A stretch of 47,567 nucleotides of DNA from a virus (Duplodnaviria; Heunggongvirae; Uroviricota; Caudoviricetes), in IMG/VR virus record IMGVR_UViG_2913112809_000003. One strand, given 5' to 3'. Under the pieces are notes generated by a model. The model was given only the letters and a program-made list of their open reading frames with translations. It made no database searches and was not told the DNA's origin. Position numbers and translations under genes: made by a program. This document shows, one piece after another, positions 1-21,163 of this stretch (position 1 is its first letter; each line of letters opens with the position of its first letter).

Positions 1-603
1 TCAAGCACCTGTTGCGGCTAATTTACAAGCGGGTTTGTCGGGAAATTTCACAGGTAATTCAGACGTGTCCGTCGCTTCAACTTTTTGGGCATACAACATC
101 CACTCCCTGAGTGATTTTTTATCAGCTTCGCTGATAATCCCAAGTGACAGCCACGTTTGCCACAGCTGTGTTTTTTCCATTATCTCCTGAAGTAATTTTT
201 GCTTCTCCCGTTCAGCGTCACGAATTTTCGCCGCCCTTTCGGCCTCGTCGTCTTTTATCCATTTCGCACCATCCCATTGATGGAATTCCCCCTCTGGCGG
301 TAAAGTGGTGACATCATCCGGCAAAGCCCCCGGACGGGAAATGCACAATGTCTTCCCGGTGGCTGTGTCATATACCGTTTTCCCACGGTGATCTTCAACA
401 ACTTCCCACTGTTGCTGTGCATCGTTGAAAACGGCAACCTGGCCGGGGCCAGCCTCTGGCGGTTCGATAAGCGTGCAGTTCGCCGGTAATCCTGTATTCG
501 GCGGAATATAAACATCTCCTGCGCCTATATACTCTTTTGTATCAGCCCGTAAGTTATAAATTTTCAGTGTCCGGGATTCTGGACTCATTTTGAAATGTGT
601 CAT
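1..603 (-). CDS. tail fiber assembly protein (Tfa-type chaperone)
   Basis: 200-aa ORF with stop at window positions 1-3; C-terminal region resembles the second Tfa copy at 7978-8523; lies immediately downstream of a tail fiber gene, overlapping its stop by 4 nt. Confidence 0.75.
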
Positions 604-1997
604 GCCAGCCTCACAATGAAGTTAAACGCGATATTTTTAACTGTATTTTCTGCATTACCCGTCTCATCAACTGTGACATCATGACCATGCGCGCCCAGTG
701 CCACGGTATGAATATGCGGGCCGATATAAACCACATGCACATGCTCGCCTCCGCTGCTGGTTGCTATATCCGCTATATATCCTGGCGTGTCCCACTTTGT
801 TCCTCCGTTCCTCGTTGTAGAACCTGTCCAGACTCCGTTGGTAATGTGATTATGCAATCCTCCATGCTCTGTACTTTTAGAGCCATAATCAAAGGAACTT
901 GTCTCCCTGGCCCCCAAATCCGTCGGTAATACCTTTGCCGTATGCCCGTGCCGCTTAACACCATCCTCTTCATGAGACAGTACTGCGCGCCCGTCTGGTT
1001 TGCCTTTTATTGTCCACCCCCGCATATCAGGTATTACACCTGACGGAAATACAGCTGCCAGTTGTGGATACGCAGATTTATCGAATGGCTGCCCCTGCAT
1101 TATTGCAAACCCCTCCGGGGGAATATCCGCTGGCCATGCAAAAGCTATCCCTGCCGGATAAGTACCGACAGATTTCAGTTCATCGACCGCTTTTCTGGCG
1201 CTGTCACTGTACTCTTTTGCATCCTCTGAACTTTTCCTGGATTCGTCGGCAAAGCGGCCGGCTTCGTTTCTTAACTGCGTTGTCAGCTGTGCATTCTGCT
1301 CCACAGACTGCGCTGCATCCGTTACTGTCAGGGTATTCTGATGCACCTGGCTGGCATTCTGCGCAACTTCTGATGCCAGACGCTCAACATGCTGTACGTT
1401 CTGATAAACATCGCCTGCATTCTGCCGAATATCTGTCGCCAGGATTTCCACCTGCTTTTCAGTTTGTGCAGCATCCGAAGCGTGCTGTCCGGCACTTTGC
1501 GCGCATCCCGCAGCGATTTCGGCATTCTTCCGTGATTGTTCTTTAAATTCCTCCGCCTTATTTGTATTGTCCAGAGCCGCTGATGCTGCATTTTTTGCAG
1601 CATCAGCAGCTGCTTCTGCTTTCTCCTTGTCAATACTCACCTGTTCAGAGAGACGGTTGACTGCATCTGCAATTTCCTCAAAACGCTTCACCACATCCGG
1701 CTTCAGGTCGTCTTCATCAAGGGCGGTAAGGAAGTCGTTCAGCGTGCCGGGTCTGGAGTCTTCATAAACTGAAATGTCACCGACACAATATTCTCTTTCA
1801 ATGCACGACCGAAGATATACATCATATTTTCCGGTCTGAGCCTCAAAGGCATATTCTCCTGCCGCCCCTGTCACCACTGCAGCCACCGTTCTCATGACCA
1901 CTACAGATGTATTCTGCCTGGCTTTCAGAATAATATGGTATCCGGACATGGGGAGTCCCGCGCCATCAGTCAGCACACCTGAAATTAATACAGCCAT
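600..1997 (-). CDS. side tail fiber protein (Stf-like)
   Basis: 465-aa ORF with an Ala/Gln/Glu-rich central segment and a Gly/His-rich C-terminal region typical of lambdoid side tail fibers; followed by a Tfa chaperone gene. Confidence 0.75.
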
Positions 1998-2021
1998 TTT
2001 TATTACCTGATACAGAAAACA

Positions 2022-3122
2022 CTAACCAAAATAATTCACGCCCTTTTTATCCGCTTTCTTCTTCCCTGAGGCCTTCCCTTTCGCGGAAATATCGGTCGCC
2101 AGCGACAGATTCAGCGCAAACCCATGCCCTGGTGCCAGTGAAAACTCCACTGACTCTGCCTGCCAGTTATGATCTTCCCGTACTCCAAACCCCTGCGTGA
2201 TAAAACGCATCTCTGCTCCCGCTTTCAGCAGTGCCGGTCTGCACGGTAGCGTTATCGTCATCTGGCGTCCGGCTTTCTGCACGCGTTTAACTTTCGAGTC
2301 TGCACAGTGTTTTGCGGTGCCCTGGTCAGGCTGGGTAAACGGATGCCGCTTGTCTGTAGACTCCACATCCACTTTAACTTCTCGTGTGCGTCCGTCACGG
2401 GTATCAAAATATCGGACACCCACTTTCCCATTCTTTTTGTCTCCCTTCCCACTACCCGCAGCACCCTGTCGTTCGCCCTCCCGGTAATCCCAGTCTGACA
2501 CCATATCCGGTGTGATGGTCATCACTGGGGTATCTCTTCCGCCTGTACTCTGCGATGCACCATACTCCAGAAATAACCAGTAACCGTTCGTCGGTTTACT
2601 GGTGGCACCATACACGCCTGCAAGCCGGGACAGGAGGGCTGCGTCTGATTCTGATGACTGCATCACCCAGGAGATACGAATATCAGCAAGCGATGGTGAA
2701 ACCCGCGCCACCAGATTATTTTCAGTGGCGATGGTTTTTACCAGGTCGCCCAGCGTGATATCGCTGAAGGCGCGGGTTTTCAGTGCGGTCACATCCGCGC
2801 CATGTCTGGACGCATTCATGGGGGCTGCGGTGGCATAAATGGTGATCCGGCGGGGAGGGCCACCGCTTGCCACCTGACAGACGGTAAAGCTGCCTTTATT
2901 TACCAGATTTCCATTAAATCCCAGCCCCAGCGTTAATACCGCACCTTTCGGAGGCAGCGCCATCGTCTCGCTGAACAGCGTTACCATCAGTTCATCGGAT
3001 CGCTTTGTGGCCGCACCATTATCGGTATAACGCAGTTCTGCCAGCCCCCGCTTTATGGCCTTTGTGATATCATTACCTTCCGCTGTCAGACTGAAATCAG
3101 GCTGATATTCATTCAGTCCCAT
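2022..3122 (-). CDS. tail protein D (P2 gpD-like late control D)
   Basis: 366-aa ORF at the end of the U-X-D block in P2 gene order; sequence resembles gpD-family tail proteins. Confidence 0.8.
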   Translation of the reverse strand: MGLNEYQPDFSLTAEGNDITKAIKRGLAELRYTDNGAATKRSDELMVTLFSETMALPPKGAVLTLGLGFNGNLVNKGSFTVCQVASGGPPRRITIYATAAPMNASRHGADVTALKTRAFSDITLGDLVKTIATENNLVARVSPSLADIRISWVMQSSESDAALLSRLAGVYGATSKPTNGYWLFLEYGASQSTGGRDTPVMTITPDMVSDWDYREGERQGAAGSGKGDKKNGKVGVRYFDTRDGRTREVKVDVESTDKRHPFTQPDQGTAKHCADSKVKRVQKAGRQMTITLPCRPALLKAGAEMRFITQGFGVREDHNWQAESVEFSLAPGHGFALNLSLATDISAKGKASGKKKADKKGVNYFG

Positions 3123-3331
3123 AACTGAAACGCCTCCTCCTCTTCCGGCTCATATGTCCAGTCCGGCAACACGATTTCCACCCCTGCGGGATACACCGGA
3201 CCAAAGTCAGCAATCCCCGGATTAGCCTCCAGTACCGCTGCCAGTGACTGGTTAAGTCCGGCACTGCCATAGTGTCTCTGACAGATATCATCCAGCATAT
3301 CGCCGTCAGTGGTCCGCCAGTTTTTCGCCAT
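3113..3331 (-). CDS. tail protein X
   Basis: 72-aa ORF between the gpU-like and gpD-like genes, the usual position of tail protein X in P2-like tails. Confidence 0.7.
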   Translation of the reverse strand: MAKNWRTTDGDMLDDICQRHYGSAGLNQSLAAVLEANPGIADFGPVYPAGVEIVLPDWTYEPEEEEAFQLWD

Positions 3332-3782
3332 AGTATTTCAGCTCCAGTGTGAACGTTTTGTTCTTCGGCGCACCGCCGGGAAGAAAGGACGTGGTGTTAT
3401 CTGAATAGGCAGTTGCCACAAAATACCCCATCACATCACCTGTGCTCGAAACCAGAAGATGCGGAGCCGGATTGTCATCCACCATCTGAACCAGTGTATC
3501 AAGGGCATCCATTCCCACACCGTCACGAAATCCCGCATGCACCATACCTTCAAGGGTTATTGTTCTGGCCCCCTTACCGGTATACTGCAGCAGGTCGTTT
3601 TTTCCGATAAGTTGCTGTTCATCCCATCGCCATTCCATAGTGCGCTTCATGGCGTTATAGGCTGCCGTATCAATACTGAATTCAAACTCACCAAACGACA
3701 GCATGACGCGGGAGGCGACATCCGTTAATGAGCCCACCGCGTCCCATGCTTCACGCTCAAGCCGGTTTACGCCCCAGCCCAC
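3306..3782 (-). CDS. tail protein U (P2 gpU-like)
   Basis: 158-aa ORF directly downstream of the tape measure gene, matching the T-U-(X)-D order. Confidence 0.7.
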   Translation of the reverse strand: MGWGVNRLEREAWDAVGSLTDVASRVMLSFGEFEFSIDTAAYNAMKRTMEWRWDEQQLIGKNDLLQYTGKGARTITLEGMVHAGFRDGVGMDALDTLVQMVDDNPAPHLLVSSTGDVMGYFVATAYSDNTTSFLPGGAPKNKTFTLELKYYGEKLADH

Positions 3783-3797
3783 GTAAATCCACCATGT

Positions 3798-5450
3798 TCA
3801 CCCCCAGAATGCATCACCATCGGTCATGCGGGAACGCTGACCAAAATTAATATCTCCCAGATTTCTCATTACCCTGTCTGCCAGTTGTCCGGCATCCTCG
3901 CCGGGCTTCTGGGTGATGTTAAATTCCGCTCGTATCTGATACGTGGGTTTTACTTCCACCTGGCTGATATTGCCGGGGGTATACTGAAGAGCCGAGAGAG
4001 GGTCCGAATTACCCTGCCCATGGTCTGCTGCAGGAAGTCCGTCAATGTAGGTGCGGGATTTCTCTTTTATCGCCTTAAAATCAGGTTCTTCTTTCGGCCC
4101 CAACAAAGGGTCGAGAAAAGCATCAAACTTTTTATCATCATGATTCCAGGGGAGATAACCGCGAGTGTCTTTATAGGCCTGTACAACCTGTTTCGTCAGC
4201 TCCGGATTTTGCCTGAGCAGTTCATCAAACCACTCCCCCTGACCGTTTTTCTGCGCTACCGCTCTCGCCAGCTCCGGCGACCCCATTTTTGCCAGATATT
4301 CCAGCACTTCTCGTCGGTCCTCTCGCGGATCATCCGCCAGCCCCCACTCAATGGCTTTCTGCGTTATTCCGGCAAGAACTTTTCCAAATTTCCACATCCA
4401 CGCAGCCATGTCGATCAGCGCCGGCAGGGCATCATCACGGATAAATGCCCGGATTTTTTCCAGCCCACCATTCTTAAACCAGGCCGCAAGGTCATCCGTC
4501 ACCTGTTGAATATGTGGAGCAAGTTCATTACCCAGCTGTCCGCTGATTTCATCAATTGAAGAACTCAGAACATAACGGAAATTTGACAACGCCACATGCC
4601 CCTGAACTGCGCCATCAGCCCCTTCCTTTGTCACCAGGTTATAGCGTTTCTGCTCACTGATAAGTTCCTGGAAGGTCTTTCCTGACAGACGCATCCAGGT
4701 CAGGATTTTATTGGCTTCACCACCAAATAACGCATCTGCCATCCCCGCAGCCTGCTGCTCATTCGCCACCTGCAGTAAGCGTTCAAACAAAAACTCGACC
4801 TGCTCCTGGTTGTTTTTTCCGGCCATTACGCCCGCTTTCAGCCCAAGTTTACCGAATACGTCCTGAATGGCTCCTTTGTCCTTGGCACCATTATCATCGT
4901 CAAAAACCTTGTTCCGGTATTCCTCAAACAGATCACCGATGTTTTCGCCGTTTAACCCCATCTGCCGGCCCAGTGAATCCCACGCCGCATAGGTTTCATA
5001 ATCCACCCCGTAACTCCGGGCTATCCCTGACCGCTCTGCCGTTTCCGCATTCCGGTTCAGTACCGCGCCGGCACCGGCTGCCAGCGTAAGCCCGGAACCA
5101 ACCGAAAGCCCCAGCCCGGTTTTAAGAACAGTCCCGGCCCGTCCTTTCCAGCGTTCCAGACGTTCTGCCCGCGCCAGCTTACGGTTAAATTTATCCTGTT
5201 CCCCGGTGGCATCATGAATTTTTCTGCCCAGCTTTTCATACTGCTTTCGCAGTTCGGTAATATCCTGTCCTGCCAGTACACCAGCCTGAATTTTTCGTTT
5301 CAGTACGTCCTGCTGGCGTGTCAGGCGAGCCACTTCCTGTGTTGCCCCTGATAATCCGTGCTTCAGTCCATCAACCGATTTTTTCCACGACGGATCTATC
5401 GAACCTCCGATCCGGATATTCGCTTTAAGGTTATCGCCCACCGTTGCCAT
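3798..5450 (-). CDS. tail tape measure protein
   Basis: 550-aa ORF, Ala/Gly/Leu-rich and predicted helical, directly downstream of the E/E' chaperone gene. Confidence 0.8.
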   Translation of the reverse strand: MATVGDNLKANIRIGGSIDPSWKKSVDGLKHGLSGATQEVARLTRQQDVLKRKIQAGVLAGQDITELRKQYEKLGRKIHDATGEQDKFNRKLARAERLERWKGRAGTVLKTGLGLSVGSGLTLAAGAGAVLNRNAETAERSGIARSYGVDYETYAAWDSLGRQMGLNGENIGDLFEEYRNKVFDDDNGAKDKGAIQDVFGKLGLKAGVMAGKNNQEQVEFLFERLLQVANEQQAAGMADALFGGEANKILTWMRLSGKTFQELISEQKRYNLVTKEGADGAVQGHVALSNFRYVLSSSIDEISGQLGNELAPHIQQVTDDLAAWFKNGGLEKIRAFIRDDALPALIDMAAWMWKFGKVLAGITQKAIEWGLADDPREDRREVLEYLAKMGSPELARAVAQKNGQGEWFDELLRQNPELTKQVVQAYKDTRGYLPWNHDDKKFDAFLDPLLGPKEEPDFKAIKEKSRTYIDGLPAADHGQGNSDPLSALQYTPGNISQVEVKPTYQIRAEFNITQKPGEDAGQLADRVMRNLGDINFGQRSRMTDGDAFWG

Positions 5451-5870
5451 AACATCGCTTCCTCTCTTCCGACTCCGCCAGCATCATTGCCACAAAATCC
5501 GTATACGGCAGCGCCATCACATCTCCCGGAGACCACCCGAACCAGGCACCGGCGCGCCGTATCGCCGTCAGGATGCTTTCTTCTTCCGCCGGACCGGCGG
5601 CAGCAAAAAAACATTGAACTGCCGCTCCAGGGTCAGGTAATCACACGCTTCCATGTTCATCATGTCCGCCGCGTCCATCCCGCACAGACCGGCAATCATA
5701 TCCAGATCAGCCTCTGCTTCCGGTTTGGTACTCCGGCGATGCAACAGACGATCGCGGACGGTAGGCGCACGCATGGTGACATGCGTGATCGTCTGTCCTG
5801 ATGCGGTGACATACGGCACGGATAACACAATTTCCACACTGCTGGCGGGAACACTGTTTTTTTCCAACAT
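5431..5870 (-). CDS. tail assembly chaperone E+E' (predicted -1 frameshift fusion product)
   Basis: The -1 frame stays open from the slippery heptamer (minus strand, plus coordinates 5604-5610) to a TAA at 5431-5433, adding about 56 acidic residues and overlapping the tape measure start, as in P2 E/E' and lambda G/GT. Confidence 0.5.
5568..5870 (-). CDS. tail assembly chaperone E (zero-frame product)
   Basis: 100-aa ORF between tail tube and tape measure genes; contains the slippery tract T TTT TTG near its 3' end. Confidence 0.75.
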   Translation of the reverse strand: MLEKNSVPASSVEIVLSVPYVTASGQTITHVTMRAPTVRDRLLHRRSTKPEAEADLDMIAGLCGMDAADMMNMEACDYLTLERQFNVFLLPPVRRKKKAS

Positions 5871-5931
5871 AATCGTCTCCTTTTAAAAAAGAAAAGGCGG
5901 CCTGAGCCGCCTGAATGACAGGATGCCGGGA

Positions 5932-6450
5932 TTAAACCCGGATAATTTTTTTCAGATCCGACAGAACATTAACGCCGTTAATACGACGCACAAATTCCTC
6001 CGGAATAATGCAGATGGTTTCCAGACCGTCGACAGCCTGACGGTAATAACTCAGTGACATTTCCACCGTCACCGAAGCCTCAGCCTGTGATGTTGCCGGG
6101 CGCGCATCCGGGGTGATACTGGTGATCATCCCCTGCAGGGTTTCCACCTGTCCGCTGGTCGCATTCCCCACCCGGTAAGCCTGACGAACAACGATCTCCG
6201 GTGAATAAAGTCCGGCCTGCAACCCCAGCAGAGTCAGCATGGCAACATCGTAGCCATAAATTTTAAATGAGCAGGTCAGTGCTTCCATGCCATCATCCAC
6301 TGCTACCGGTGCATCCATTGCGCCGGTTTTGATATCCACTGTCGTGATATTAATGGCAGGCGGCGTGTATTCATGTGCCCCCTGAAGACGGATCCCGCCA
6401 GGAAGAAATAACGCCCACGCGCGCAACAGTTTTTTTTCACCCGTAATCAT
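5932..6450 (-). CDS. tail tube protein (P2 FII-like)
   Basis: 172-aa ORF immediately downstream of the sheath gene with a 4-nt overlap. Confidence 0.85.
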   Translation of the reverse strand: MITGEKKLLRAWALFLPGGIRLQGAHEYTPPAINITTVDIKTGAMDAPVAVDDGMEALTCSFKIYGYDVAMLTLLGLQAGLYSPEIVVRQAYRVGNATSGQVETLQGMITSITPDARPATSQAEASVTVEMSLSYYRQAVDGLETICIIPEEFVRRINGVNVLSDLKKIIRV

Positions 6451-7922
6451 ACTGTCAGCTCCTCCAGCGCCAGTTTATTGTTAATCATCGCCCGCAGTGT
6501 CAGGCGCTCCAGTGGTGACTTCGGCCCAAAGTCATAATCAATATACAACCGCCCTGCCGCCAGGGTTTCTGCTGTATTCAGTTCATCATTCAGCCAGGCA
6601 CTGCCCCCGTGGATCGCGCCCAGATTTTTAAGCTGGCGCATATAGGCATTAATACTGCCAAGAATGTCTTCTGCCACATCCCGATCAAGCGGTCGGTCGA
6701 CATAAGGCAGCATGGCCTCCTGAATGCTGTCTTCAATCACATCTGCTGTACGGCGTACCGGCTCAAAACGCCACTGGCTGTGGGATGAGCACAGACGGTT
6801 CCCCCAGTGTTTAAAACCGTCGTGGCGAATAATGGTGGAGATATTTTCCATGTTCAGCAGGTTTGCTGTGCAGTTCTGCTCTCCGAGAATAAATGTGTCA
6901 ACCTGCTCCAGTCCGGTGATATTCATCACGTCCTGGTTTGACTTGGACCACCACCATCCTTTTTCGTAATCAATACGGGCACGTAGCCCTGCAGCTCGTG
7001 CTGAATACGGACGAAATACCGTCTGCCCGCTGTCATCCATCACTGACACGCGCGGACGCAGCAGCTCCACACGCCCGCCAAAGGACGCACGTCGCTGAAC
7101 CACATCCTGCGGCGTTGCCATTGAGGGAGAGTCTATATAGGCCACGGCCCGTAACTTCGCTGCGTACGTTTCCAGCGCCTTTGCCACGCCATCATCCTCA
7201 CTGTAACCAGTAGCGATAAGAATGCGCGGCTGGTAGCCCGTTTTTCCTTTGCTTTCCATCAGGGCTTCCATTGCCCGAATGACTGCCGCGCGCTGTTCTG
7301 CTTCCTTTGCCTTCGTTTTGCTTTCCGCACGCACCACAATCACCAGCGCACCTGTCTGGTCAAAAATATCACGCAGGGCCGGATATAATGTCCCGGCTGC
7401 GCCCAGTTTCCCGGCCTGAGTTAACGCCCCCGCCACCACCACCGGTGTATTAACCGGAAACGCCTCATCCTCTCCGCCGGATAAGGTCAGACTGAACGGC
7501 GACACCACATTATTTTCTGCACCCTCTGCATTCAGTGGACTGACCGCCACTGTCACTGGCGAATCACCCAGTGCATTCACCACCTCAATCACACGAGCCA
7601 CCGTGGTGTTAACCTGGCTGCGTTCATCCGTACCCAGCGTTATCATCAGGGTCGAACCTTCCAGCGAAGCCGCTGTCTGCGCGCTTTGCTTTGTGGCAGC
7701 GACAGCAACAACCGAAATATTATTGCCAGCCCTACCTTCCTGTTTCGCCGTAAAATCCAGCGCCGTTCCCAGCAGCCACGAACCGGCTGTACCGGAAGCA
7801 CACACACCACCGGAGGCGTCCGGCGCGGTCCCCACCAGGCCAATTACAGCTGTGGAGATGGTCTGCACGGCAACCGTGCCTGTCGTCAGTTCAATGGTTT
7901 CAACACCATGTAGTCCGGACAT
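6447..7922 (-). CDS. tail sheath protein (P2 FI-like)
   Basis: Start set at the in-frame ATG at 7922 preceded by GGGAGA; N-terminus MSGLHGVETIE aligns with the P2 FI N-terminus as recalled. Confidence 0.9.
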   Translation of the reverse strand: MSGLHGVETIELTTGTVAVQTISTAVIGLVGTAPDASGGVCASGTAGSWLLGTALDFTAKQEGRAGNNISVVAVAATKQSAQTAASLEGSTLMITLGTDERSQVNTTVARVIEVVNALGDSPVTVAVSPLNAEGAENNVVSPFSLTLSGGEDEAFPVNTPVVVAGALTQAGKLGAAGTLYPALRDIFDQTGALVIVVRAESKTKAKEAEQRAAVIRAMEALMESKGKTGYQPRILIATGYSEDDGVAKALETYAAKLRAVAYIDSPSMATPQDVVQRRASFGGRVELLRPRVSVMDDSGQTVFRPYSARAAGLRARIDYEKGWWWSKSNQDVMNITGLEQVDTFILGEQNCTANLLNMENISTIIRHDGFKHWGNRLCSSHSQWRFEPVRRTADVIEDSIQEAMLPYVDRPLDRDVAEDILGSINAYMRQLKNLGAIHGGSAWLNDELNTAETLAAGRLYIDYDFGPKSPLERLTLRAMINNKLALEELTV

Positions 7923-7933
7923 ACATTTCTCCC

Positions 7934-7958
7934 ATAAAAAAACCGCCCTTAAGGCGGT
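7934..7958 (-). terminator. intrinsic terminator between the fiber operon and the sheath operon
   Basis: Hairpin ACCGCC-cttaa-GGCGGT followed on the minus strand by a T7 run, lying between the Tfa stop (7978) and the sheath start (7922). Confidence 0.5.
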
Positions 7959-7977
7959 CAGATAATTCATTTCTTTT

Positions 7978-8523
7978 TCAGATATTTTGTGGTGGCTCAG
8001 GCCAGACGATATTGTTGTAAGTGGCCTTATCCGAAATATTGCTGAAATCCATCATCTGCAATTTCTTTGCGTAAATACGGTACGCCTTCAGCTTTTCTTT
8101 ATCTTCGTCGCTGATTAACCCAAGTTGCAGGTCTTTTTCCCACTCGCTGGTCACGATACTGACCTGCTTTAACAGAGCATCGCGTTCGTCTTCTGCTTTT
8201 AATTTGTAGTCGAAAACAAATTCATCATTCCGGTAAAACCAGTAGCCTGACGCTGCAATACGACGATTCGCGGTAATGTCCGGCAGTTCAATTACGCTTT
8301 TATTTTCCGGGCAAACCGATGTGATATTTTTCCCGACCCAGACGACTTCTCCCGTTTTGACATAAATCACTTTGAGAGTGTCTGGCTGAAATTTTTCCTG
8401 AGCTTCATGCCATTCCTGACCATCCTCTGAGAACAGCCACAATAAAAATTTATGCTGTCGTGCCAGTTGGTATTGCTCAATCGTTTTAGGGTTCTGAACA
8501 GAAATATTTTTTAAATGCATCAT
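7978..8523 (-). CDS. tail fiber assembly protein (second Tfa copy)
   Basis: 181-aa ORF immediately downstream of the gpH-like fiber gene; C-terminal region is similar to the Tfa at 1-603. Confidence 0.75.
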   Translation of the reverse strand: MMHLKNISVQNPKTIEQYQLARQHKFLLWLFSEDGQEWHEAQEKFQPDTLKVIYVKTGEVVWVGKNITSVCPENKSVIELPDITANRRIAASGYWFYRNDEFVFDYKLKAEDERDALLKQVSIVTSEWEKDLQLGLISDEDKEKLKAYRIYAKKLQMMDFSNISDKATYNNIVWPEPPQNI

Positions 8524-8525
8524 AA

Positions 8526-9914
8526 TTACAAACTCGCTACATTCCGCCAGACGCCATTAATCAGAACCTGCACCGGGCGGGCATTCGCCCAGTCCACGCT
8601 TTCGCCACCATCAACACCGCTCAGCAAATGGCCTGATGGTGCATTCCCTCCACGCCCAATCCCAACCGCACTCCCCAGTCGCACATCCTGTACGATCCCT
8701 GTTTTCATCTGGTAACGGGCATCAAAGTTTCCATAATTTGATGGCACTACCTGTCCGTTTACAGCGAACGTGATGCTGTTATCTGTATTCCTCTGGCTGT
8801 AAAAATGCCAGCCTGAATCATCACCAAGTTCAACAACTACGGGTCTGGATGAATGCCCCCATAAATTAAACGTTGCATTTTTCGCAGATTCGTTAGTGCT
8901 GGATAGCGTAAATTTCCTGGCATTTCCGGCCTGAATATTTTTTAACGCTATTGCCACCCCATTCTGAAAACGAAATACATGCTGTCCATTCGCATAAACA
9001 TCCAGAATGCCGTCGCCGTTTTGTTTTATACCTGTATCGTTATCTCCGAGAGCAATTGAGTTACCGCCCAGTGCGTTCTGAACGCCGATACCCAATGCAC
9101 CATTCACCTGAGAACCACCGCCAACAGACACTTTGTGGGACATGGATATCTCACCCGTCCGCAAATTTATGGTGAACGGACGCAGGGGGCCAATATCGCC
9201 ATTTTCACCCTGACCTTCACTGGTAGGGATAAGGTGCAGGCACTCTTCCGAACGACGAAAAATCAGGCCAAAAGCTTCGTTGAAAATCCTCAGCGCATTC
9301 ACACCATGGATTTTCAGTTCCCCGCTCATGGTGTCACCATCACGCTGAACGGCATTTTTTGCCTTGTCTACCGTGGGTTTTAATCCGAGGTTATCAATTG
9401 CTTCGTCATTGTCTTCCACATCTGAAAGATTGTTTTTTCGTTGCAGATAACGCCTGTCACCTGTTTCCTGGGTAATAATGGCCCTTTCAGGATCAATCTC
9501 CAGCGTCACATTCTGGGTGTGGGTAAGCGCCAGAACCATTGTCAGTATAACTTCTTTGATAACAGAATCAGTCTGCGCCGGTAAATACGTGTCGGGATAA
9601 CGACCATAAGCAATCAGCGTACCGCTGCTGCTAACCATTCCCAGCTCACGCAAGGTTCTTCCGGGATATTTTTTACAGTCAATGACAATGTCACCACTGA
9701 TAAATCCCTGCTCAACCTTACCTTCAGAAAACACTTCCTGACCAAATTGCCCCAACAATGCCGACATTGAAGCCATCTCATCCGGTGTTGATGGTAACGT
9801 TTTACCGCCGCCATCCCCCGTCAGTACATGAGTGATCGTAACCACCTGACCAGTCTGATAAGCCGATTCAATTTCGGCTGCTCCTTGTATTGTTAACGTC
9901 AGTCCTGATGGCAT
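8526..9914 (-). CDS. tail fiber protein (P2 gpH-like)
   Basis: 462-aa ORF in the H position of the V-W-J-I-H-G block; Gly-rich C-terminal receptor-binding region. Confidence 0.8.
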   Translation of the reverse strand: MPSGLTLTIQGAAEIESAYQTGQVVTITHVLTGDGGGKTLPSTPDEMASMSALLGQFGQEVFSEGKVEQGFISGDIVIDCKKYPGRTLRELGMVSSSGTLIAYGRYPDTYLPAQTDSVIKEVILTMVLALTHTQNVTLEIDPERAIITQETGDRRYLQRKNNLSDVEDNDEAIDNLGLKPTVDKAKNAVQRDGDTMSGELKIHGVNALRIFNEAFGLIFRRSEECLHLIPTSEGQGENGDIGPLRPFTINLRTGEISMSHKVSVGGGSQVNGALGIGVQNALGGNSIALGDNDTGIKQNGDGILDVYANGQHVFRFQNGVAIALKNIQAGNARKFTLSSTNESAKNATFNLWGHSSRPVVVELGDDSGWHFYSQRNTDNSITFAVNGQVVPSNYGNFDARYQMKTGIVQDVRLGSAVGIGRGGNAPSGHLLSGVDGGESVDWANARPVQVLINGVWRNVASL

Positions 9915-9926
9915 ACATTCTCCTTA

Positions 9927-10496
9927 TCAGTCTGTAAGTAACGAACAATAATTAAACGCATTAGCAACAGATACCGGATCCGGAAACTTTGCCATAAATT
10001 CTGACTTACTGCCTGTTACATTGCTGCACTGGAAAAACAAATATGACAGATTGCATTTTTCAGCAAACACATCCGGGAATATATCATTAATGTCCATTGC
10101 CAATAATGTGCACTCACGAAACATTTCGGTCATGTCGACACTACTTTCCCGATGATTAATCACCCCACAAGGAACCTTAATCAATGACGAACACCATCTG
10201 AACATGCCTCTGCTCACGGTAAGTGGGCAGTCTGCAAATAGTTCACTCTGAATCTTCGTTAATGCATTGCAATTCGAAAAAATATAAGACACATCTTTCA
10301 GCGAAATACATCCTCTGAATGTGTCAGCCGGTAACATAATAAGTTTTCTGCAATTTGCAAAAACGGAATTCATTGATATCAGAGATGTACAACCAGAAAA
10401 AATCCCTTCACCGATCTCAGTCGAAATATTACAGTTAGCAAACGTTTCTGATGCCGATTTAACTGACACACACCCCGAAAAAAAGTCTGTCACCAA
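9927..10496 (-). CDS. C-terminal leucine-rich-repeat segment, out of frame with the upstream gpI-like gene
   Basis: 189-aa ORF with a TTG start only; continues the roughly 23-residue F-x-x-C-x-x-L-x-x-I repeat of the upstream ORF; the two frames meet at a T7 tract (plus 10478-10484). Confidence 0.5.
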   Translation of the reverse strand: MVTDFFSGCVSVKSASETFANCNISTEIGEGIFSGCTSLISMNSVFANCRKLIMLPADTFRGCISLKDVSYIFSNCNALTKIQSELFADCPLTVSRGMFRWCSSLIKVPCGVINHRESSVDMTEMFRECTLLAMDINDIFPDVFAEKCNLSYLFFQCSNVTGSKSEFMAKFPDPVSVANAFNYCSLLTD

Positions 10497-12339
10497 TGCT
10501 TTCCAGTGATTTGCAGTTATAAAACACCCCGTTTATTCCTGTCAGCTTCTGACATCCCTCGAATAAGCCATCGCCAACATGGGTAATACTGTGGCAGTTG
10601 TAAAACGCATTATTAGCAGAACGAAGATTATCTGCCCCAGAAAACAATCGCGCAGGTATACTGCGTATACTGTCACACTCATTAAATATGCCATCAATAT
10701 GCGCAATTCTGCTTCTGATAACATCCGCCCAGCCACCGGGAATGGTTGTCAGTGTTCGGCAACCATAAAACGCACAGGACAAATCAATTGATGATGCGTC
10801 GTTTTCGTTCTGCTCCCCAAATATCGCCGGGAGTTCCGCAAGATTACAACACCCAGAAAACGCCCTGTAAAAATTCTGAAGTCTGTGAGCTGGAATAGCG
10901 GGGGCATTAACCATCTTCTCACACCCGGAAAAAGCATTTTCAAAAGTCAATGCATTCTCCATACCAGCGAATAATGTCTCCGGAACCCGGACGATCTCCG
11001 AACAGCCACAAAACAGTTTTGAAAGTATGTTCGCGCTTGATTTTGTCGCAAATAAAAGTGGGATGTCTGTCAGGGCAGAGCACCCATAGAATACACCAGA
11101 CCAATTCACCACAGCTTCGCACCTGGCAAAAAGATTTTCAGGTAATTCATGAAGAGACGAACACCCCCTAAAGGCATTCTCAAATGAAAGTACGTGAGGC
11201 AGATTATCAAAAGAACCTGCGTGAATTTTTCGCAATGCCCACTGCAGATTCGCAAACCACGACATGTCTTTTCTGGAACCACTGACGCGGATGATCTCCA
11301 GGAGTGGATTGGTGTTGTTTACTGCCTTCGGGGTGTAGAATGTCAGACTTTCCGCGCCCTTAATCGTCAGTGTAATTTCTTCTCCGACCGGCAATGTGCG
11401 GGTAGCTTTGACCACATCCTCCTTAATCACATAATCTCTGCTGTCCAGTCCATCACCATAATCAATAGTGAAGTCGTTATCCTGGGGATCGATAAAAAAC
11501 AGTGGCATGCTGGCGTTATCTGCCCGGATAATAACCTGAACAACCGACACAACACTTACCGGCAGTCTGGCAACCACTCCATTTACCGTTGATACGACGA
11601 CTGTAGTTCGACCAGACTGTTTCCCTGTCAGAGTAACCACATCACCAGAAACACTTATCGCGGCCACACTGTCATTTTCGATTTGTACAGAAAATACGCG
11701 GGAATCAGCAATCAGTGGTAGCACCGTCACCTGCACAGAAACAACGTCTCCAGGGGCCAGTCGTAAGTTGTCTGATGACAACTGTATTTCTGACGGCAGT
11801 ATCCTGTTTTTCATCTTTTCCGTCGCTGTCACATACCCATAGCTGTATCCGTTCCCCTGGCAGCCCCCATAAACATGAATACTGAACCAGCTGCGCAGAT
11901 TTTTGGCACGTAATACGGCATGTTTCAGATCCTGGTGGTCACTCATCAGGACAGGCAAGTCCTTCTGCTCCACATTCAACCGGAAGGTATAGGGATCACC
12001 AGGCGGCGTCTGCTCATACCATTCCACAATCTGCGACCGGAACGGACTGTCAGCCAGCGACGCCATCAGCGCCGCTTTAGTCCCTCTGTGGCGATGGATA
12101 TAGGCGGCACGCTTTATAGCAGAACGTTTTTCCACCTCCGTCCAGTGTTCATTCCAGGTATCTACTGCCATTTCCCAGGCCAGCCATGGCAGCAATTCAG
12201 CAGGACATAAATCGGGATTTTTCACATAGCGGATCAGACAGACCGCTATGTCTGCCAACATATCTCCGGCGACACAGTCCACCACCCGCTCTGCCCGGCT
12301 GGCATTGACCGGCAGTATGCTCCTGATATCGTCATTCAT
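10459..12339 (-). CDS. baseplate protein with gpI-like N-terminus, Ig-like middle region and C-terminal leucine-rich repeats
   Basis: 626-aa ORF in the P2 gpI position, overlapping the gpJ-like gene; the first ~170 residues resemble gpI, followed by a Val/Ser/Thr-rich beta region and then Cys-containing leucine-rich repeats. Confidence 0.8.
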   Translation of the reverse strand: MNDDIRSILPVNASRAERVVDCVAGDMLADIAVCLIRYVKNPDLCPAELLPWLAWEMAVDTWNEHWTEVEKRSAIKRAAYIHRHRGTKAALMASLADSPFRSQIVEWYEQTPPGDPYTFRLNVEQKDLPVLMSDHQDLKHAVLRAKNLRSWFSIHVYGGCQGNGYSYGYVTATEKMKNRILPSEIQLSSDNLRLAPGDVVSVQVTVLPLIADSRVFSVQIENDSVAAISVSGDVVTLTGKQSGRTTVVVSTVNGVVARLPVSVVSVVQVIIRADNASMPLFFIDPQDNDFTIDYGDGLDSRDYVIKEDVVKATRTLPVGEEITLTIKGAESLTFYTPKAVNNTNPLLEIIRVSGSRKDMSWFANLQWALRKIHAGSFDNLPHVLSFENAFRGCSSLHELPENLFARCEAVVNWSGVFYGCSALTDIPLLFATKSSANILSKLFCGCSEIVRVPETLFAGMENALTFENAFSGCEKMVNAPAIPAHRLQNFYRAFSGCCNLAELPAIFGEQNENDASSIDLSCAFYGCRTLTTIPGGWADVIRSRIAHIDGIFNECDSIRSIPARLFSGADNLRSANNAFYNCHSITHVGDGLFEGCQKLTGINGVFYNCKSLESIGDRLFFGVCVS

Positions 12340-13246
12340 CGGTTGTCTCCACCTTGTTCAGTGTTACCTTACGGCACCACGGTGCCTGCCCCATCGCAGG
12401 AACGATATCGCTGGCAGGAGAGGTCAGATTCACCGTAATCACCCCGGTCTGGTGCAGTGCACCATCCATGCCGGAACGGGATGCCACTGAACCAATCCTG
12501 TGGACACTGTCAGTGTAAGACTGCAGCGCCTTACGGGCATTTGCCATTACCAGTTCACCATCCAGTCCGTAGGGAATATGAATATTCGCCACCACGTCGT
12601 AGGGAATAATTTCTGCCGCCCGGACACTGACAAAATCCGTCAGGGGACGGGTTTCATCATCACTGACTGATGCTGCCACCTTATCCAGCAGGGGTTGTGA
12701 TGCGGTGCCATTTCCTGACCGGGATAACACATAAAGAAAAACCCGCCCTTCCTGCGAATGCGTTTCCGGCCCGTAGGCTTTCACATCCAGCACATCAGGA
12801 TCAGCACTTTGTGCAAAATAGTGGTACGCATTTTTCGCGCCAGCGGTGCTGAGCCGTGCCCATGACAACTGAATGCGTTCGCGAAAGGCGTCATCATCTT
12901 CATACACCGCCGGCGTGGGCGGAATGGTGCTGTCGTCTGCAGGGGTAATTACCAGCCGCTGTACCTGATAATTCGCGCCAACCTGATCCAGATCGTTCCC
13001 TCCGGCACTGGCAAGCAGTACTGCACGAACTGCATCATTTATTTGCTGGCGCATCAGCGCCACCCGAAAAGCCAGTGCCTCCGCCCATTTATAAGCAGGA
13101 TCAGATTCCACCAGTGCTGAAAACAACGTATCCAGCTCCTGATACTTCGCCACTATCTGAGAGACGAGCATTGCGGTATCCGGCACTTCCACAGCATCCG
13201 GTACCGGTATCGCGGACAGATCAATGATTGCCTGAGACATTGCCAA
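12332..13246 (-). CDS. baseplate assembly protein J (P2 gpJ-like)
   Basis: 304-aa ORF in the J position between the W-like and I-like genes. Confidence 0.85.
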   Translation of the reverse strand: MAMSQAIIDLSAIPVPDAVEVPDTAMLVSQIVAKYQELDTLFSALVESDPAYKWAEALAFRVALMRQQINDAVRAVLLASAGGNDLDQVGANYQVQRLVITPADDSTIPPTPAVYEDDDAFRERIQLSWARLSTAGAKNAYHYFAQSADPDVLDVKAYGPETHSQEGRVFLYVLSRSGNGTASQPLLDKVAASVSDDETRPLTDFVSVRAAEIIPYDVVANIHIPYGLDGELVMANARKALQSYTDSVHRIGSVASRSGMDGALHQTGVITVNLTSPASDIVPAMGQAPWCRKVTLNKVETTDE

Positions 13247-13577
13247 TTTTTATCTCCTCGAGTCGAATCGTGTCCTGAGTTTCGTTGTTCACCCCGACAA
13301 GCGTCAGCCAGGCGCTCCCTTCTCCTGTCCACGTCACCTCCACCCGCCGGAGGGTCAGGCGGGGTTCCCAGCGTTCAAGGGCGGTTGCCGTTTCACGGAC
13401 AATTCTCACCCGCGTGAAATCATCCTGTGGGTTATCAAGCAGACTGAACAGTCTGCTGCCGTATTCCCTGAGCAGTACCCGGCTGCCGACCGGCGTTGAC
13501 AAAATATCGGTGACGGACTGGCGCAGATGTTCGTTACCGTGCAGATATCTGCCGGTGGCTGAATCAATACCAATCAT
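13221..13577 (-). CDS. baseplate protein W (gpW/gp25-like)
   Basis: 118-aa ORF between the V-like and J-like genes. Confidence 0.8.
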   Translation of the reverse strand: MIGIDSATGRYLHGNEHLRQSVTDILSTPVGSRVLLREYGSRLFSLLDNPQDDFTRVRIVRETATALERWEPRLTLRRVEVTWTGEGSAWLTLVGVNNETQDTIRLEEIKIGNVSGNH

Positions 13578-13610
13578 GTTGTTTATTCCGGAAAAAAACT
13601 GAAAAGGAGA

Positions 13611-14234
13611 TTACATTTGCTGACCAGGCTGTCCGGTGCTGCCACCACTGTCGCCCCGGTGATTGTGACCGTTATAGACAAGCCGGATTTGACTCATCGT
13701 TCCGTAATAATCAGAAACCTCACCACCGACCGTCAGATCCGCCTTAACTACCGCTTCAGTATTCATGGTTGCTTTACCATGTACGGTCAGGGTGTCTGTG
13801 ATTTCTACCGGACCGTCCAGGGTTCCCTTGCCGGTAATTTTATAGCTACCGCCTTCAGCCAGCGTGATGGACAGGGCATTAGCCTTACGGTCGTAACGGA
13901 TTTCCGTTCCGGTATCAAACAAAATAACATGTTCGTATTTACTGCCCTCAGGGACAGGGATAGCGTCAATATTGGCCCCCGGATACACCCGACCGTTACG
14001 CAGATCGCCCGCCTCCGATATCACCGTAACGGCATCGCCGGGGGCCGGATAATTACTGACCTGCATGTAGCGCCCGGACTGCACCTGAATCCAGGGTAAC
14101 GGCGGCGAAAGCACATCCCCGATATCCACCCGAACCATCACCGGACTACCCGGTATCACTTCCTCCACCACCCCACGCCGCACCATATCCGCCACCCTGC
14201 GGCGTAACTCTGCCACTTCATCTGCCAGACTCAT
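13611..14234 (-). CDS. baseplate spike protein V (gpV-like)
   Basis: Start assigned to an internal ATG at 14234 (MSLADEVAELRRR); the ORF's 5' extension overlaps the upstream gene; an alternative ATG lies upstream. Confidence 0.75.
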   Translation of the reverse strand: MSLADEVAELRRRVADMVRRGVVEEVIPGSPVMVRVDIGDVLSPPLPWIQVQSGRYMQVSNYPAPGDAVTVISEAGDLRNGRVYPGANIDAIPVPEGSKYEHVILFDTGTEIRYDRKANALSITLAEGGSYKITGKGTLDGPVEITDTLTVHGKATMNTEAVVKADLTVGGEVSDYYGTMSQIRLVYNGHNHRGDSGGSTGQPGQQM

Positions 14235-14784
14235 TGCCGGTGCCCTCGGTTTTCCAGATAAGACGATAATCCCGCTCATGTCTCTTGCCAGTTTCCGGTA
14301 CTTTCCCCAGCCAGACTTCCTGTAATGGCGCACCTGCCGTAACCGCGAACGGATCTTCCCCGACAGGAATATCCTGTTCGAAAGAAACACGGAAAACGAT
14401 GTAGTCATCCAGAAGCCGGTCGAAGGTATCCACCTCTGCATCAATAAAAACAGCCGGATCAACGTTATCCAGCCCGAACGTGGCCCCCTCAATCCAGTCA
14501 GACAAATCCATCGCCAGGCAACGGGCAAAAATCTGCGGTTTTGGCACGTTTTCCGTCTTTCCGGCCCGGTCTGTCACCACAAACAGATCACATTTCAGCG
14601 TGACCCGCGTCTGCCCGTCGGCAAACTGAGTCTTGTCCCAGCCAGGTACATCCACAAACACGACAGGCGTCACCAGTTGCGTCACTTTTTCCGGGTATTC
14701 ATCAGCATCTTCCACCCAGGGAATTTGTTTCAGACTGTCAATCACCGCCTGATGCCAGGCTCCCATCATCAATGGCTCCATCAC
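14218..14784 (-). CDS. hypothetical virion protein (tail completion region)
   Basis: 188-aa acidic ORF between the head genes and baseplate V, in the position of P2 R/S-type tail completion genes. Confidence 0.5.
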   Translation of the reverse strand: MMEPLMMGAWHQAVIDSLKQIPWVEDADEYPEKVTQLVTPVVFVDVPGWDKTQFADGQTRVTLKCDLFVVTDRAGKTENVPKPQIFARCLAMDLSDWIEGATFGLDNVDPAVFIDAEVDTFDRLLDDYIVFRVSFEQDIPVGEDPFAVTAGAPLQEVWLGKVPETGKRHERDYRLIWKTEGTGNESGR

Positions 14785-15503
14785 TCCAGCCCCTTAAATA
14801 CCCGGAATTTCAGTTCATGCTCAAAATTTTTCAGGATCAGTGCTTCCGCATCCGGAAAAACAAAATCCTCTATACGGTTCAGCATGGCTTCATAAATATC
14901 AATTTCCGCTTCACGCACCCTCCGTCGTCCGGATGCCTGTCGGACCAGTATCGTTTTCCTTTTTGATATACGTCCGTTACGATTTTCCGTTTCGAACTGG
15001 TTGATGAAGGCATCATCCGTTGACCAGGTGGTGACAGGCAGGGATTCCCCGGAAGGTTTAAAACGGATCTCCCGCGCCTTCCTGCGGTGGGAAGCTGGTG
15101 CAAAACGTCCCCGCTCATCGCGCAACTGATGACGTTCGCCGCGTCGTCCCCCACTGATGCGTCCGCGCAGATCACGTACTTTGATGGCATTCAGACCAAA
15201 CCACACCTTCGCCTCATCAAACTCATCACCGTTACGACGAATGACAAAATTATGCAGAACACGCTTTTTGATCATTTTCTGACTGCGTGGGGCAACCTGT
15301 TTTTTAAACTCTGCCATAGCCTTCATCCGCAGTGCAGACGAAGCTCTTTTCAGTGCCACGCCCCAGGCTTTACGGATCTGGCTTTTTGAACCGCCCAGTT
15401 TAACGATAATTTTCAGCACCTCATCTTCATCAATATCGACGACGAGGTTTCGTGCCAGCCGTCGCTGCCGGGCACTGCTTCGTTCATGCTCTCTGACTGC
15501 CAT
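14781..15503 (-). CDS. putative virion morphogenesis / tail completion protein
   Basis: 240-aa basic ORF overlapping its neighbours by 4 and 20 nt within the head-tail joining region. Confidence 0.5.
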   Translation of the reverse strand: MAVREHERSSARQRRLARNLVVDIDEDEVLKIIVKLGGSKSQIRKAWGVALKRASSALRMKAMAEFKKQVAPRSQKMIKKRVLHNFVIRRNGDEFDEAKVWFGLNAIKVRDLRGRISGGRRGERHQLRDERGRFAPASHRRKAREIRFKPSGESLPVTTWSTDDAFINQFETENRNGRISKRKTILVRQASGRRRVREAEIDIYEAMLNRIEDFVFPDAEALILKNFEHELKFRVFKGLE

Positions 15504-15891
15504 AACGTTTACTCGGTCGTTCCGGCGCGGAAGGTGTATTTCTCCCCGGCTCTCCCCGCGCGAGGGTGATGGTAATCACACCCTGACCCGCAGTGCCTGA
15601 CTCATCCCAGCCGGGATCGAGTACCTGGTAGGGTTCGCCGTGGATCATGACCCTGTCATATTTTTTCAGACCGGCGGCCCATGCACTCCGGGTAAATAAC
15701 ACGGGCGCAGTATCACGAATTTCGCCGCTGCCAGTGTTCATCCCGGTGTTATCTGCCGGGGCATCGAAAACGGCACGGATTTTTCTTTCCGTGCCGCCAG
15801 GATATATGCTGATTTCCGTCCCCATCGTATCCAGGATGATGTCATCCGCATCACTCATGGCCTGATCGAACAGATTATCGAACATCATCAC
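15484..15891 (-). CDS. putative head-tail joining protein
   Basis: 135-aa ORF two genes downstream of the major capsid gene. Confidence 0.5.
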   Translation of the reverse strand: MMMFDNLFDQAMSDADDIILDTMGTEISIYPGGTERKIRAVFDAPADNTGMNTGSGEIRDTAPVLFTRSAWAAGLKKYDRVMIHGEPYQVLDPGWDESGTAGQGVITITLARGEPGRNTPSAPERPSKRYGSQRA

Positions 15892-16256
15892 TCCCGGATT
15901 TTTTCTGCCAGACCGTCCGCCAGTAATGCAGGAACGGCAGCTTCATTAACCAGCACAACACTGGAGGCCCGGGCGAACATCAACATCTTTCCTGTCGCTG
16001 CATCACAGGCTGGCATATGTGCCGTTTTCAGCATGCGCACCCGAACGAGTCCCCGCTCAGAATGCATCCCGTCGCCGGATACGTTGTTGTCCACCTCTTC
16101 CGCCCCTGTATCCCCCACATCAAATCCAGCGGCCTCCTCTTCCCATTCCGCCAGGCGCTGTTCAAGATCGGCTTTTGAACCTGAAATATCTGCTTCACGC
16201 CCCAGAATCACTGCCAGCTCCTGAAGGCGTTCCGTCATCTGCTCTTTTGTCATCAC
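15888..16256 (-). CDS. putative DNA packaging / head stabilisation protein (FI position)
   Basis: 122-aa acidic ORF immediately downstream of the major capsid gene, as lambda FI is. Confidence 0.5.
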   Translation of the reverse strand: MMTKEQMTERLQELAVILGREADISGSKADLEQRLAEWEEEAAGFDVGDTGAEEVDNNVSGDGMHSERGLVRVRMLKTAHMPACDAATGKMLMFARASSVVLVNEAAVPALLADGLAEKIRE

Positions 16257-16303
16257 ATCTCTCCCGTGCGCTAAAGAAAAAGGCGGGAATATCCCGCCCA
16301 GTC

Positions 16304-17332
16304 TTATTTCACCTGAACCACCACAAACGCATCCGGATCCGGCAGCACCATCAAAGGTGCAGACTGCGTCATGGTATATTCACAACCAGGATCACCCACT
16401 TCCTCCCAGTGTTTCGGATAACGAATTGCAGAGGTGATCCCTTCACTCAGCGCCTGATTATCCTGAATAGCACCATAGCAACGGACGCCTTCCGCCTGGG
16501 TATTTCCCAGAATCAGTGTACCTTCAGGCAGATAACGCTGTTCATCCCCGTTTTCGTCAACATACGTTGTCTTCGCCACCACGACAGCCAGATCGCCGTA
16601 CCAGCCCTTAAAGGAAACCACGGAACCCAGATCTTTCAGTGCCGTTTCCAGCTCAGATTTGGAGCCACGGCGTGTATCCAGTTTTTCACGGAACAGTTTA
16701 AAACCGTTCAGCATACGCCAGACCGTGCCGTCCATAATCGCGATATTGATGGTGCCGGAAGCAAAATCGCAGTACGCATCCAGATCATGCGTCGGATCGA
16801 AGGTGTCATTATTCTGCTGTGACCATTCGCGTCCGCCAGCCTGTGTAATGTTATTGGCGGCAGAGCGCCCAAAATCCACTTCCACCGTCTCAAACTGCTC
16901 GCCGCTCATGGTGTATTTACCCTGCAGAACGGCGCTGACTGCCTGCATTTCTTCCACCTGCACAATTGCCTGCTCCTCCTGTTTCAGGTTGTCCGTCAGA
17001 ATACGCAGACGGCGGTAGGCCGGGTCATTAAGGCGGGCCGGATCTTCCCCCGGAAGACGTTCTACCGCCTGCTGATAATCAAAGCGGTGTTTTGGTTTTA
17101 CGTAGCCGGGACGTAACACGCGGGTTTCACCACCACGGCTGCGCAGCACTTTGCCTGACACCACCGGAGACACATACGCCGCAACCGGCGTTTTGCCGGT
17201 AATTTTATCCAGCATGACTTCCTGAGTATGAAAAGTGATCGTGCGGCGAAAGAACAGCTCCAGAAACAGCGCACGAAATTTCACTTTCTGCTCGGTGTAC
17301 CCGAGTAACTGACGCGTGGTAAATAACCCCAT
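16304..17332 (-). CDS. major capsid protein (lambda gpE-like)
   Basis: 342-aa ORF sharing long motifs with lambda gpE as recalled, for example AIVQVEEMQAVSAVLQGKYTM, KLDTRRGSKSELETA and MTQSAPLM. Confidence 0.95.
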   Translation of the reverse strand: MGLFTTRQLLGYTEQKVKFRALFLELFFRRTITFHTQEVMLDKITGKTPVAAYVSPVVSGKVLRSRGGETRVLRPGYVKPKHRFDYQQAVERLPGEDPARLNDPAYRRLRILTDNLKQEEQAIVQVEEMQAVSAVLQGKYTMSGEQFETVEVDFGRSAANNITQAGGREWSQQNNDTFDPTHDLDAYCDFASGTINIAIMDGTVWRMLNGFKLFREKLDTRRGSKSELETALKDLGSVVSFKGWYGDLAVVVAKTTYVDENGDEQRYLPEGTLILGNTQAEGVRCYGAIQDNQALSEGITSAIRYPKHWEEVGDPGCEYTMTQSAPLMVLPDPDAFVVVQVK

Positions 17333-17401
17333 AATTTATTTTCCTTCATAAATACAAACGGGCCGCATCGCGACCCGTTTTTTCAGTTAATCACTTCACC
17401 A

Positions 17402-17737: not shown

Positions 17738-17776
17738 TTTCTCAGTCTCCTGATTTATCTGAATTCCGGATACCGC

Positions 17777-21160: not shown

Positions 21161-21163
21161 CTT

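Follow-up and report, generated by a model that had tools for sequence, protein, structure and literature searches.

The tail module and its prophage

The window, by which we mean the whole stretch of 47,567 nucleotides that we analysed, carries a run of phage tail genes in the order sheath (507 aa), tube, chaperone, tape measure, gpU (PF06995), tail protein X (PF05489) and a gpD-like hub. Further along, the baseplate genes J and I are of the P2 type. The tail tube gene (5932..6450, minus strand) belongs to the P2 FII family (PF04985, Phage_tube, E 3e-22) and lies directly upstream of a gene for a tail assembly chaperone (5568..5870, minus strand), the analogue of P2 E and lambda G, with a zero-frame product of 100 aa. 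The chaperone ORF matches the Pfam family PF10109 (Phage_TAC_7, tail assembly chaperone E/41/14) at 45.7 bits over profile positions 2–78 of 79, the gathering cut-off being 25 bits, and also PHROG 166, 'tail protein' (E 4e-23). On the other side of the chaperone is a gene of 550 codons (3798..5450, minus strand). This ORF, the tape measure protein gene, has no Pfam match and is situated between the chaperone and the homologues of gpU, gpX and gpD. The location of the chaperone between the tube (PF04985) and tape measure genes is that of the E/E+E' and G/GT class.

The head genes are of the lambda type and include gpA terminase, a lambda-family portal, an S49 protease and an E-type capsid. Since these are combined with P2-type tail and baseplate genes, the element is a myovirus prophage of mosaic make-up. 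Escherichia coli M8 carries the region at 99.9% identity, and 74 of 5,426 complete E. coli genomes (about 1.4%) have versions of it with 90–99% identity, while no match to it turned up in the phage collection by blastn. In the RefSeq record of E. coli M8, 'phage tail assembly protein' alone is annotated at the chaperone locus, without ribosomal slippage. Some RefSeq genomes label the tape measure gene 'phage tail tape measure protein', while others often have it as 'hypothetical protein'.

A candidate frameshift site near the end of the chaperone gene

Direct reading of the minus strand places the chaperone ORF from ATG at 5870 to TGA at 5570..5568, a total of 100 codons. Codons 87–89 read GTT TTT TTG and contain the slippery heptamer T TTT TTG (5604..5610, minus strand) in the X_XXY_YYZ register. 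The first T of the heptamer (5610..5604 in the direction of reading) is the third base of codon 87, and codons 88 (TTT) and 89 (TTG) follow. The earlier note had pointed to this heptamer in the E-like ORF, and its register is the canonical one. Beyond the heptamer, the zero frame continues for 11 sense codons (LPPVRRKKKAS) before the stop, in agreement with the distance of about 12 codons proposed there.

In the −1 frame, the sequence is open from GCT (5604..5602) for 57 sense codons (AAAGPAEEES…CYGNGGR) and ends with TAA at 5433..5431. This extension (5431..5604, minus strand), the analogue of E', translates into the 57 residues AAAGPAEEESILTAIRRAGAWFGWSPGDVMALPYTDFVAMMLAESEERKRCYGNGGR. The stop had been located correctly in the earlier note, with an extension of 56 codons instead of 57, a trivial difference. 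The end of the extension overlaps the beginning of the tape measure gene, as had also been noticed: with the tape measure ATG at 5450, the overlap amounts to 20 nt. A composite frameshift CDS (5431..5870, minus strand), written as join(5870..5604, 5604..5431), would encode an E+E'-like fusion of a predicted 146 aa, of which the N-terminal 89 residues are common to the short chaperone. Across the junction, the predicted fusion reads …QFNVFL|AAAGPAEEESILTAIR, with Leu followed by Ala at the junction, and the predicted junction peptide of the 146-aa protein is …QFNVFLAAAGPAEE….

Two other features of the gene were considered. A 72-aa ORF at 5614..5396 lies in the +1 frame and is not the E' frame, as the earlier note had cautioned. 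Because some closely related E. coli variants retain just 27–34 codons of it, it is regarded as spurious. A second in-register heptamer, A AAA AAC at codons 3–5 of the chaperone gene, was rejected as a site. It is 95 codons away from the stop and absent from relatives outside E. coli, and its −1 read-out of 49 codons has no homologue.

The −1 extension is conserved as protein from the heptamer onwards

The short protein has few homologues (12 clusters), and the DNA of their loci was recovered for comparison. Together with eight relatives, the window forms a family of nine loci; the relatives are a Salmonella-type prophage, Citrobacter, Trabulsiella, Cedecea, Dryocola and three metagenomic contigs, and their identity to the window is 47–75% when the whole predicted fusion protein is compared. 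The −1 extensions of the family are 54–64 aa long and align as protein, sharing the motif RRAGAWFGWxP…MALP. Invariant residues of the extension are R105, R106, W110, G112, W113, P115, P122, F126, E133, E136 and R137. In the part that belongs to the extension only, pairwise differences across genera are concentrated at the third position of the −1 codons (0.31/0.215/0.571 for the three positions), whereas they are flat in the dual-coding stretch (0.43/0.33/0.49). Within E. coli, the variable sites of the extension in seven variants are distributed over the codon positions as 6/6/16. The −1 frame is under purifying selection.

Alternatively, the −1 region might be a separate small gene with its own start, possibly translated by termination-reinitiation at the E stop. 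In some relatives, gene callers and PGAP do predict ORFs of 41–61 aa in the −1 frame. An ATG overlaps (ATGA) or abuts the chaperone stop in the Salmonella-type prophage (L018) and in L019, and the ORF called in one E. coli variant (L027) starts on the last base of the chaperone stop. However, the corresponding codon in the window is CTG. No ATG, GTG or TTG is found in the −1 frame of the window 5' of the conserved RRAGAWFGWxP motif, so that the motif could be expressed only from the chaperone start; the first such codon after the motif would leave about 28 aa. There is no conserved start codon, but all family members have the heptamer, and the protein conservation of the −1 frame starts at the heptamer, inside the chaperone ORF. 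Furthermore, the homologous arrangement in P2 is an established fusion (PMC3091744). With a start that is restricted to two or three relatives and missing from the window, an independent E' gene is very unlikely.

A probable divergent relative of P2 E'

The relationship of the extension to known E' proteins is visible only in profile-profile comparison. Searches of the extension against Pfam (including PF06528, the P2 E' family Phage_P2_GpE), NCBIfam and PHROGs gave no match even at E ≤ 10, and pairwise BLASTP of the window fusion against P2 E+E' was not significant. The extension is therefore not a formal member of PF06528. Run exhaustively with the 57-aa extension as query, phmmer retrieved only a few separately called small ORFs (41–87 aa) and low-complexity matches in long proteins, and a naturally fused E–E' protein (a 'Rosetta stone') was not among them. 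A sequence search of the PDB with the family profile yielded nothing meaningful.

By contrast, when the nine fused proteins of the family were compared as a profile with twelve P2-type fused proteins using hhalign, the two aligned over 113 columns (87%, E 4e-6), collinearly through the junction. In this alignment, FGWxPxE of the extension pairs with FHWPPSE of P2 E' (FHWPPSEL). For the extension alone, comparison with P2 E' gave P = 1.9e-4 over 21 columns, versus 0.22 and 0.0075 in the cross-controls. In addition, tblastn links the window extension to an E'-like peptide (WFRFQPGEIDAL…) in the Mu-like phages PhiKM and KP12. Based on the collinear fused profiles, the extension-only comparison and the tblastn link, the extension is best read as a divergent homologue of E'. 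The earlier note had named a lack of similarity to E'/GT extensions among the grounds for rejecting its proposal, and similarity to E' is seen at the profile level, with the fused profile collinear into the FxWxPxE motif.

Conservation of the slippery site

T TTT TTG or T TTT TTA is found at homologous codons in all nine family members, 10–11 codons before the stop. Likewise, the heptamer T TTT TT(G/A) and the 57-codon extension are kept in 7/7 sampled E. coli variants. The residue preceding Phe varies across the family (V/D/N/A), with the third base of its codon always T. The Leu of the heptamer is always encoded by TTR, versus 18% TTR among the other Leu codons of these genes. Neighbouring Gln, Phe and Asn codons vary synonymously across the family while the heptamer is invariant.

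Outside the family, the picture differs. Hafnia phage yong2, which is more distant (46% identity), has a homologous −1 extension, but reads GTT TTT ATG at the site, a broken heptamer; the canonical site is thus not universal. The Pseudomonas PF10109 loci (L008–L017, about 30% identity) lack an in-register heptamer close to the 3' end, and their −1 frames look non-coding.

The length of the T-run is also variable. It comprises seven T in the window (5611..5605) and only six in 6/9 family members. There is a genomic length variant with six T (L024/L025), and the run differs between seven T and six T in E. coli CP122895.

These lengths bear on the possibility that the shift occurs during transcription, with RNA polymerase adding one U in the seven-T run such that standard translation enters the E' frame. 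Seven consecutive T in the window and a six-T genomic variant, which shows that the run is prone to length change, speak for this idea. Bacterial RNA polymerase slips appreciably at runs of about 8–9, and a long conserved homopolymer (about 8–9 or more A/T) is not what we find: the run consists of seven T in the window and of six in 6/9 family members and in P2. A run of only six fits the requirement for a heptamer and not polymerase slippage. Moreover, the conserved features, namely the X_XXY_YYZ register and the TTR codon for Leu, are relevant to tRNA re-pairing and not to the polymerase. Given the six-T runs in most of the family and in P2, we consider transcriptional slippage highly improbable.

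Taken by itself, the heptamer is no more frequent than expected by chance: the window contains 20 copies of TTTTTTG where 19 are expected, and in-register XXXYYYZ heptamers number 43 in about 9,900 codons of likely genes (~1 per 230 codons). Long open −1 frames are much less frequent: the −1 frame is open for at least 57 codons at 2.4% of gene positions (median 9), and at none of the other 43 heptamers. Register, position, the long open −1 frame and conservation are significant together, and the comparative evidence, the strongest argument against chance, is decisive. That a heptamer and an open −1 frame coincide by accident and serve no function is hardly credible despite the chance frequency of the motif and is effectively refuted by the comparative data, since site and extension are maintained in at least six genera, with substitutions that follow a coding pattern, at a position that fits the tube/chaperone/tape-measure order, a universal rule in dsDNA phages (PMC2628397, PMC5009743).

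Proposed mechanism and possible stimulators

We propose that a programmed −1 ribosomal frameshift operates in the tail assembly chaperone gene of this contractile-tailed E. coli prophage, and, judging from the sequence data, assign this reading a probability of nearly nine in ten. Most ribosomes would read the 100-codon ORF to TGA and produce the short chaperone, which corresponds to gpE of P2 and gpG of lambda. A smaller share would slip back by one base on U_UUU_UUG, with tRNA-Phe (UUU) in the P site and tRNA-Leu (UUG) in the A site. The slipped tRNAs would re-pair with UUU_UUU, and translation would continue for 57 codons in the −1 frame. The predicted product of 146 aa would join the first 89 residues of the short form to a different C-terminal domain and would be the counterpart of gpE+E' in P2 and gpGT in lambda. 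If lambda is taken as the model, the shared domain may coat the tape measure protein and the extension may recruit the tube protein, with a high ratio of the short to the long form fixed from one mRNA. We infer the ribosomal nature of the slippage, its efficiency and the roles of both proteins, as well as the production of the 146-aa protein.

Frameshift sites can be accompanied by stimulatory elements, and both sides of the heptamer were inspected. RNAalifold of the family alignment gave a consensus of −4.7 kcal/mol with weak covariation and no conserved downstream stem-loop 5–9 nt 3' of the heptamer. Folding of the single sequence gave z = −1.7, and there was no Rfam match. A local CCGCCGG/CCGGCGG hairpin in the window is absent in Cedecea and Dryocola, and a conserved downstream hairpin of the dnaX type was not found. 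Upstream, GGAG (5625..5628, minus strand) is located 14 nt 5' of the heptamer, within the hexamer CTGGAG, which is nucleotide-identical in 9/9 family members. A Shine-Dalgarno-like element about 10–14 nt upstream of the heptamer is known to stimulate frameshifting of the dnaX type. A similar role of CTGGAG as a Shine-Dalgarno-like stimulator is speculative, and its conservation is confounded because CTG GAG also encodes the invariant residues L81 and E82.

Comparison with P2, lambda and Mu-like phages

The closest parallel in arrangement is offered by P2, where E/E+E' in the FETUD tail operon is an established fusion by −1 frameshift, according to the accounts in PMC3091744 and PMC5009743 that cite Christie et al. 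2002. The P2 site TTTTTTG, in the same register, yields E (91 aa) and E+E' (142 aa), as stated in PMC3091744 with reference to Christie 2002 and Xu 2004; the products predicted for the window are of 100 and 146 aa. Heptamer and register are thus identical, and in both cases the site is near the 3' end of a PF10109 ORF flanked by the tube (FII) and tape measure (T) genes. Both extensions end inside the start of the tape measure gene, with overlaps of 8 nt (E' and T) in P2 and 20 nt in the window, and both contain the F-x-W-x-P-x-E motif, the profiles being collinear across the junction. P2 and its Burkholderia relatives are reported to have no downstream hairpin (PMC3091744), and the window resembles P2 in having no conserved downstream RNA structure.

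The differences are nevertheless considerable. Sequence similarity between P2 and the window is very low. P2 E+E' consists of PF10109 and PF06528 domains, whereas the window extension has no PF06528 match. The annotated P2 site is six codons before the E stop, compared to 11 in the window. A P2-type head contrasts with the lambda-type terminase, portal, protease and capsid genes of the window element, and the 507-aa sheath and the tape measure of only 550 aa are also unlike P2.

In the model for lambda G/GT, the short form covers the tape measure, and the extension brings in the tube protein (PMC5009743). Similarities to the arrangement predicted for the window include a pair of proteins that share their start and N-terminus by way of a low-level −1 shift, a gene flanked by those for the major tail protein and the tape measure, and, presumably, the logic of a fixed ratio, the roles in the window element being assigned by analogy. 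Lambda differs in its site, G GGA AAG, and in its non-contractile tail, and similarity of the window to G or T is not detectable at the sequence level. For the lambda frameshift and the general rule in dsDNA phages, the sources are Levin 1993 and Xu, Hendrix and Duda 2004, 2013 and 2014, as summarised in PMC5009743.

Mu-like chaperones share with the window an upstream ORF of the same Pfam family, PF10109. In Mu itself, the gp41 class uses a −2 frameshift, as PMC2628397 reports from Xu 2004. In contrast to the canonical −1 site of the window, the E'-like peptide of PhiKM and KP12 is in the +1 (= −2) frame, and these phages have no T TTT TTG. Taken as a whole, the resemblance to E/E' and G/GT asserted in the earlier note is borne out, with the PF10109 ORF, its position, the heptamer, the −1 frame and the conservation all in agreement.

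Significance

A more far-reaching interpretation would combine three elements: an extension that represents a distinct E'-type family, shifting tuned by CTGGAG, and a T-run that acts as an on/off switch. We regard this joint reading as improbable. If it were true, an E'-type domain family with the invariant motif RR-x3-W-x-G-W-x-P…P would have been missed by Pfam PF06528, NCBIfam and PHROGs, and frameshifting would be tuned by an upstream Shine-Dalgarno-like CTGGAG instead of a downstream structure. The difference between 7T and 6T (E. coli CP122895) would then be a heritable on/off switch for tail assembly in the prophage lineage.

The programmed −1 frameshift in the chaperone gene itself appears to be a genuine but ordinary representative of the P2 E/E+E' (lambda G/GT) class, a textbook phage feature that is unannotated in this lineage. 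It leaves the understanding of frameshifting and of tail assembly unchanged. The value of the finding is mainly in annotation, for a lineage carried by about 1.4% of complete E. coli genomes and also found in several further genera of enterobacteria. In RefSeq/PGAP, the extension is either unannotated or a separate 'hypothetical protein' (45 aa in some strains), and the CDS join(5870..5604, 5604..5431) completes the annotation of the tail module. The divergent set of sequences assembled here could also widen the E' profile.

Variation at the probable frameshift site among related phages

In the chaperone homologue of Hafnia phage yong2 (L004, 1516..1937), the GTT TTT TTG of the family, comprising the window and its cross-genus relatives, is replaced by GTT TTT ATG, a single T-to-A change that breaks the slippery heptamer. 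Despite this, the homologous extension is encoded in the −1 frame and is annotated in the yong2 record as a separate hypothetical protein of 40 aa with a TTG start codon. The Mu-like Escherichia phage PhiKM (L002, 1750..1910) and Klebsiella phage KP12 (L003) also encode a peptide (WFRFQPGEIDALDTDDLEMW…) homologous to the extension, which is left without annotation in both records. Whereas the extension of the window lies in the −1 frame, this peptide is found in frame +1 (= −2) with respect to the PF10109 ORF, and no canonical −1 heptamer is present in either PhiKM or KP12. The frame of the peptide is consistent with a −2 frameshift of the kind reported for Mu (PMC2628397).

The region homologous to window positions 5605..5611 is also altered in E. 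coli CP122895.1, which carries two copies (L024 and L025) located ~35 kb apart. Both have a run of six T residues versus seven in the window (GTTTTTTGC), through which the heptamer register is lost and the chaperone is joined to the otherwise spurious +1-frame ORF. The resulting 122-aa fused protein belongs to a cluster (P0002) of 25 member sequences. The shorter run is explained either by a genuine, inactivating deletion in the homopolymer or by a homopolymer error of long-read sequencing.

The chaperone gene has another slippery-type heptamer in register, A AAA AAC, at its codons 3–5 (5856..5862, minus strand), with the −1 frame remaining open for 49 codons. This heptamer is probably fortuitous, since it is confined to the E. 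coli versions of the gene and its 49-codon read-out has no homologue.

Prophage organization and the tube–chaperone intergenic region

Gene content of regions 1..23119 and 42100..44781 of the window shows that the prophage is a mosaic, in which packaging and head genes of the lambda type (gpA terminase, lambda-family portal, S49 protease and E-type capsid) are joined to a P2-type contractile tail. It also carries a gene for a RecE-like exonuclease VIII. Two pairs of tail-fibre and fibre-assembly genes are present, at 9914..7978 and at 1997..1. E. coli M8 has an IS66 element, which the window lacks, in the interval separating the first pair from the sheath gene. At 626 aa, the P2 gpI-like baseplate protein (10459..12339, minus strand) is unusually long. 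Its C-terminus contains a BspA-type leucine-rich-repeat region, scoring slightly below the Pfam cut-off, and the next ORF, of 189 aa, has a similar repeat flavour. The repeat part may be an additional receptor-binding module.

Between the tube stop codon (5932) and the chaperone ATG (5870) lies a GC-rich hairpin, AGGCGGCTCAGGCCGCCT, followed by TTTCTTTTTT (5885..5912, minus strand), which looks like an intrinsic terminator. Most relatives, as well as Hafnia phage yong2, have a hairpin plus T-tract at the corresponding intergenic position, with different stem sequences. The hairpin may act as a partial terminator or attenuator, lowering expression of the chaperone and tape-measure genes relative to those of the sheath and tube.
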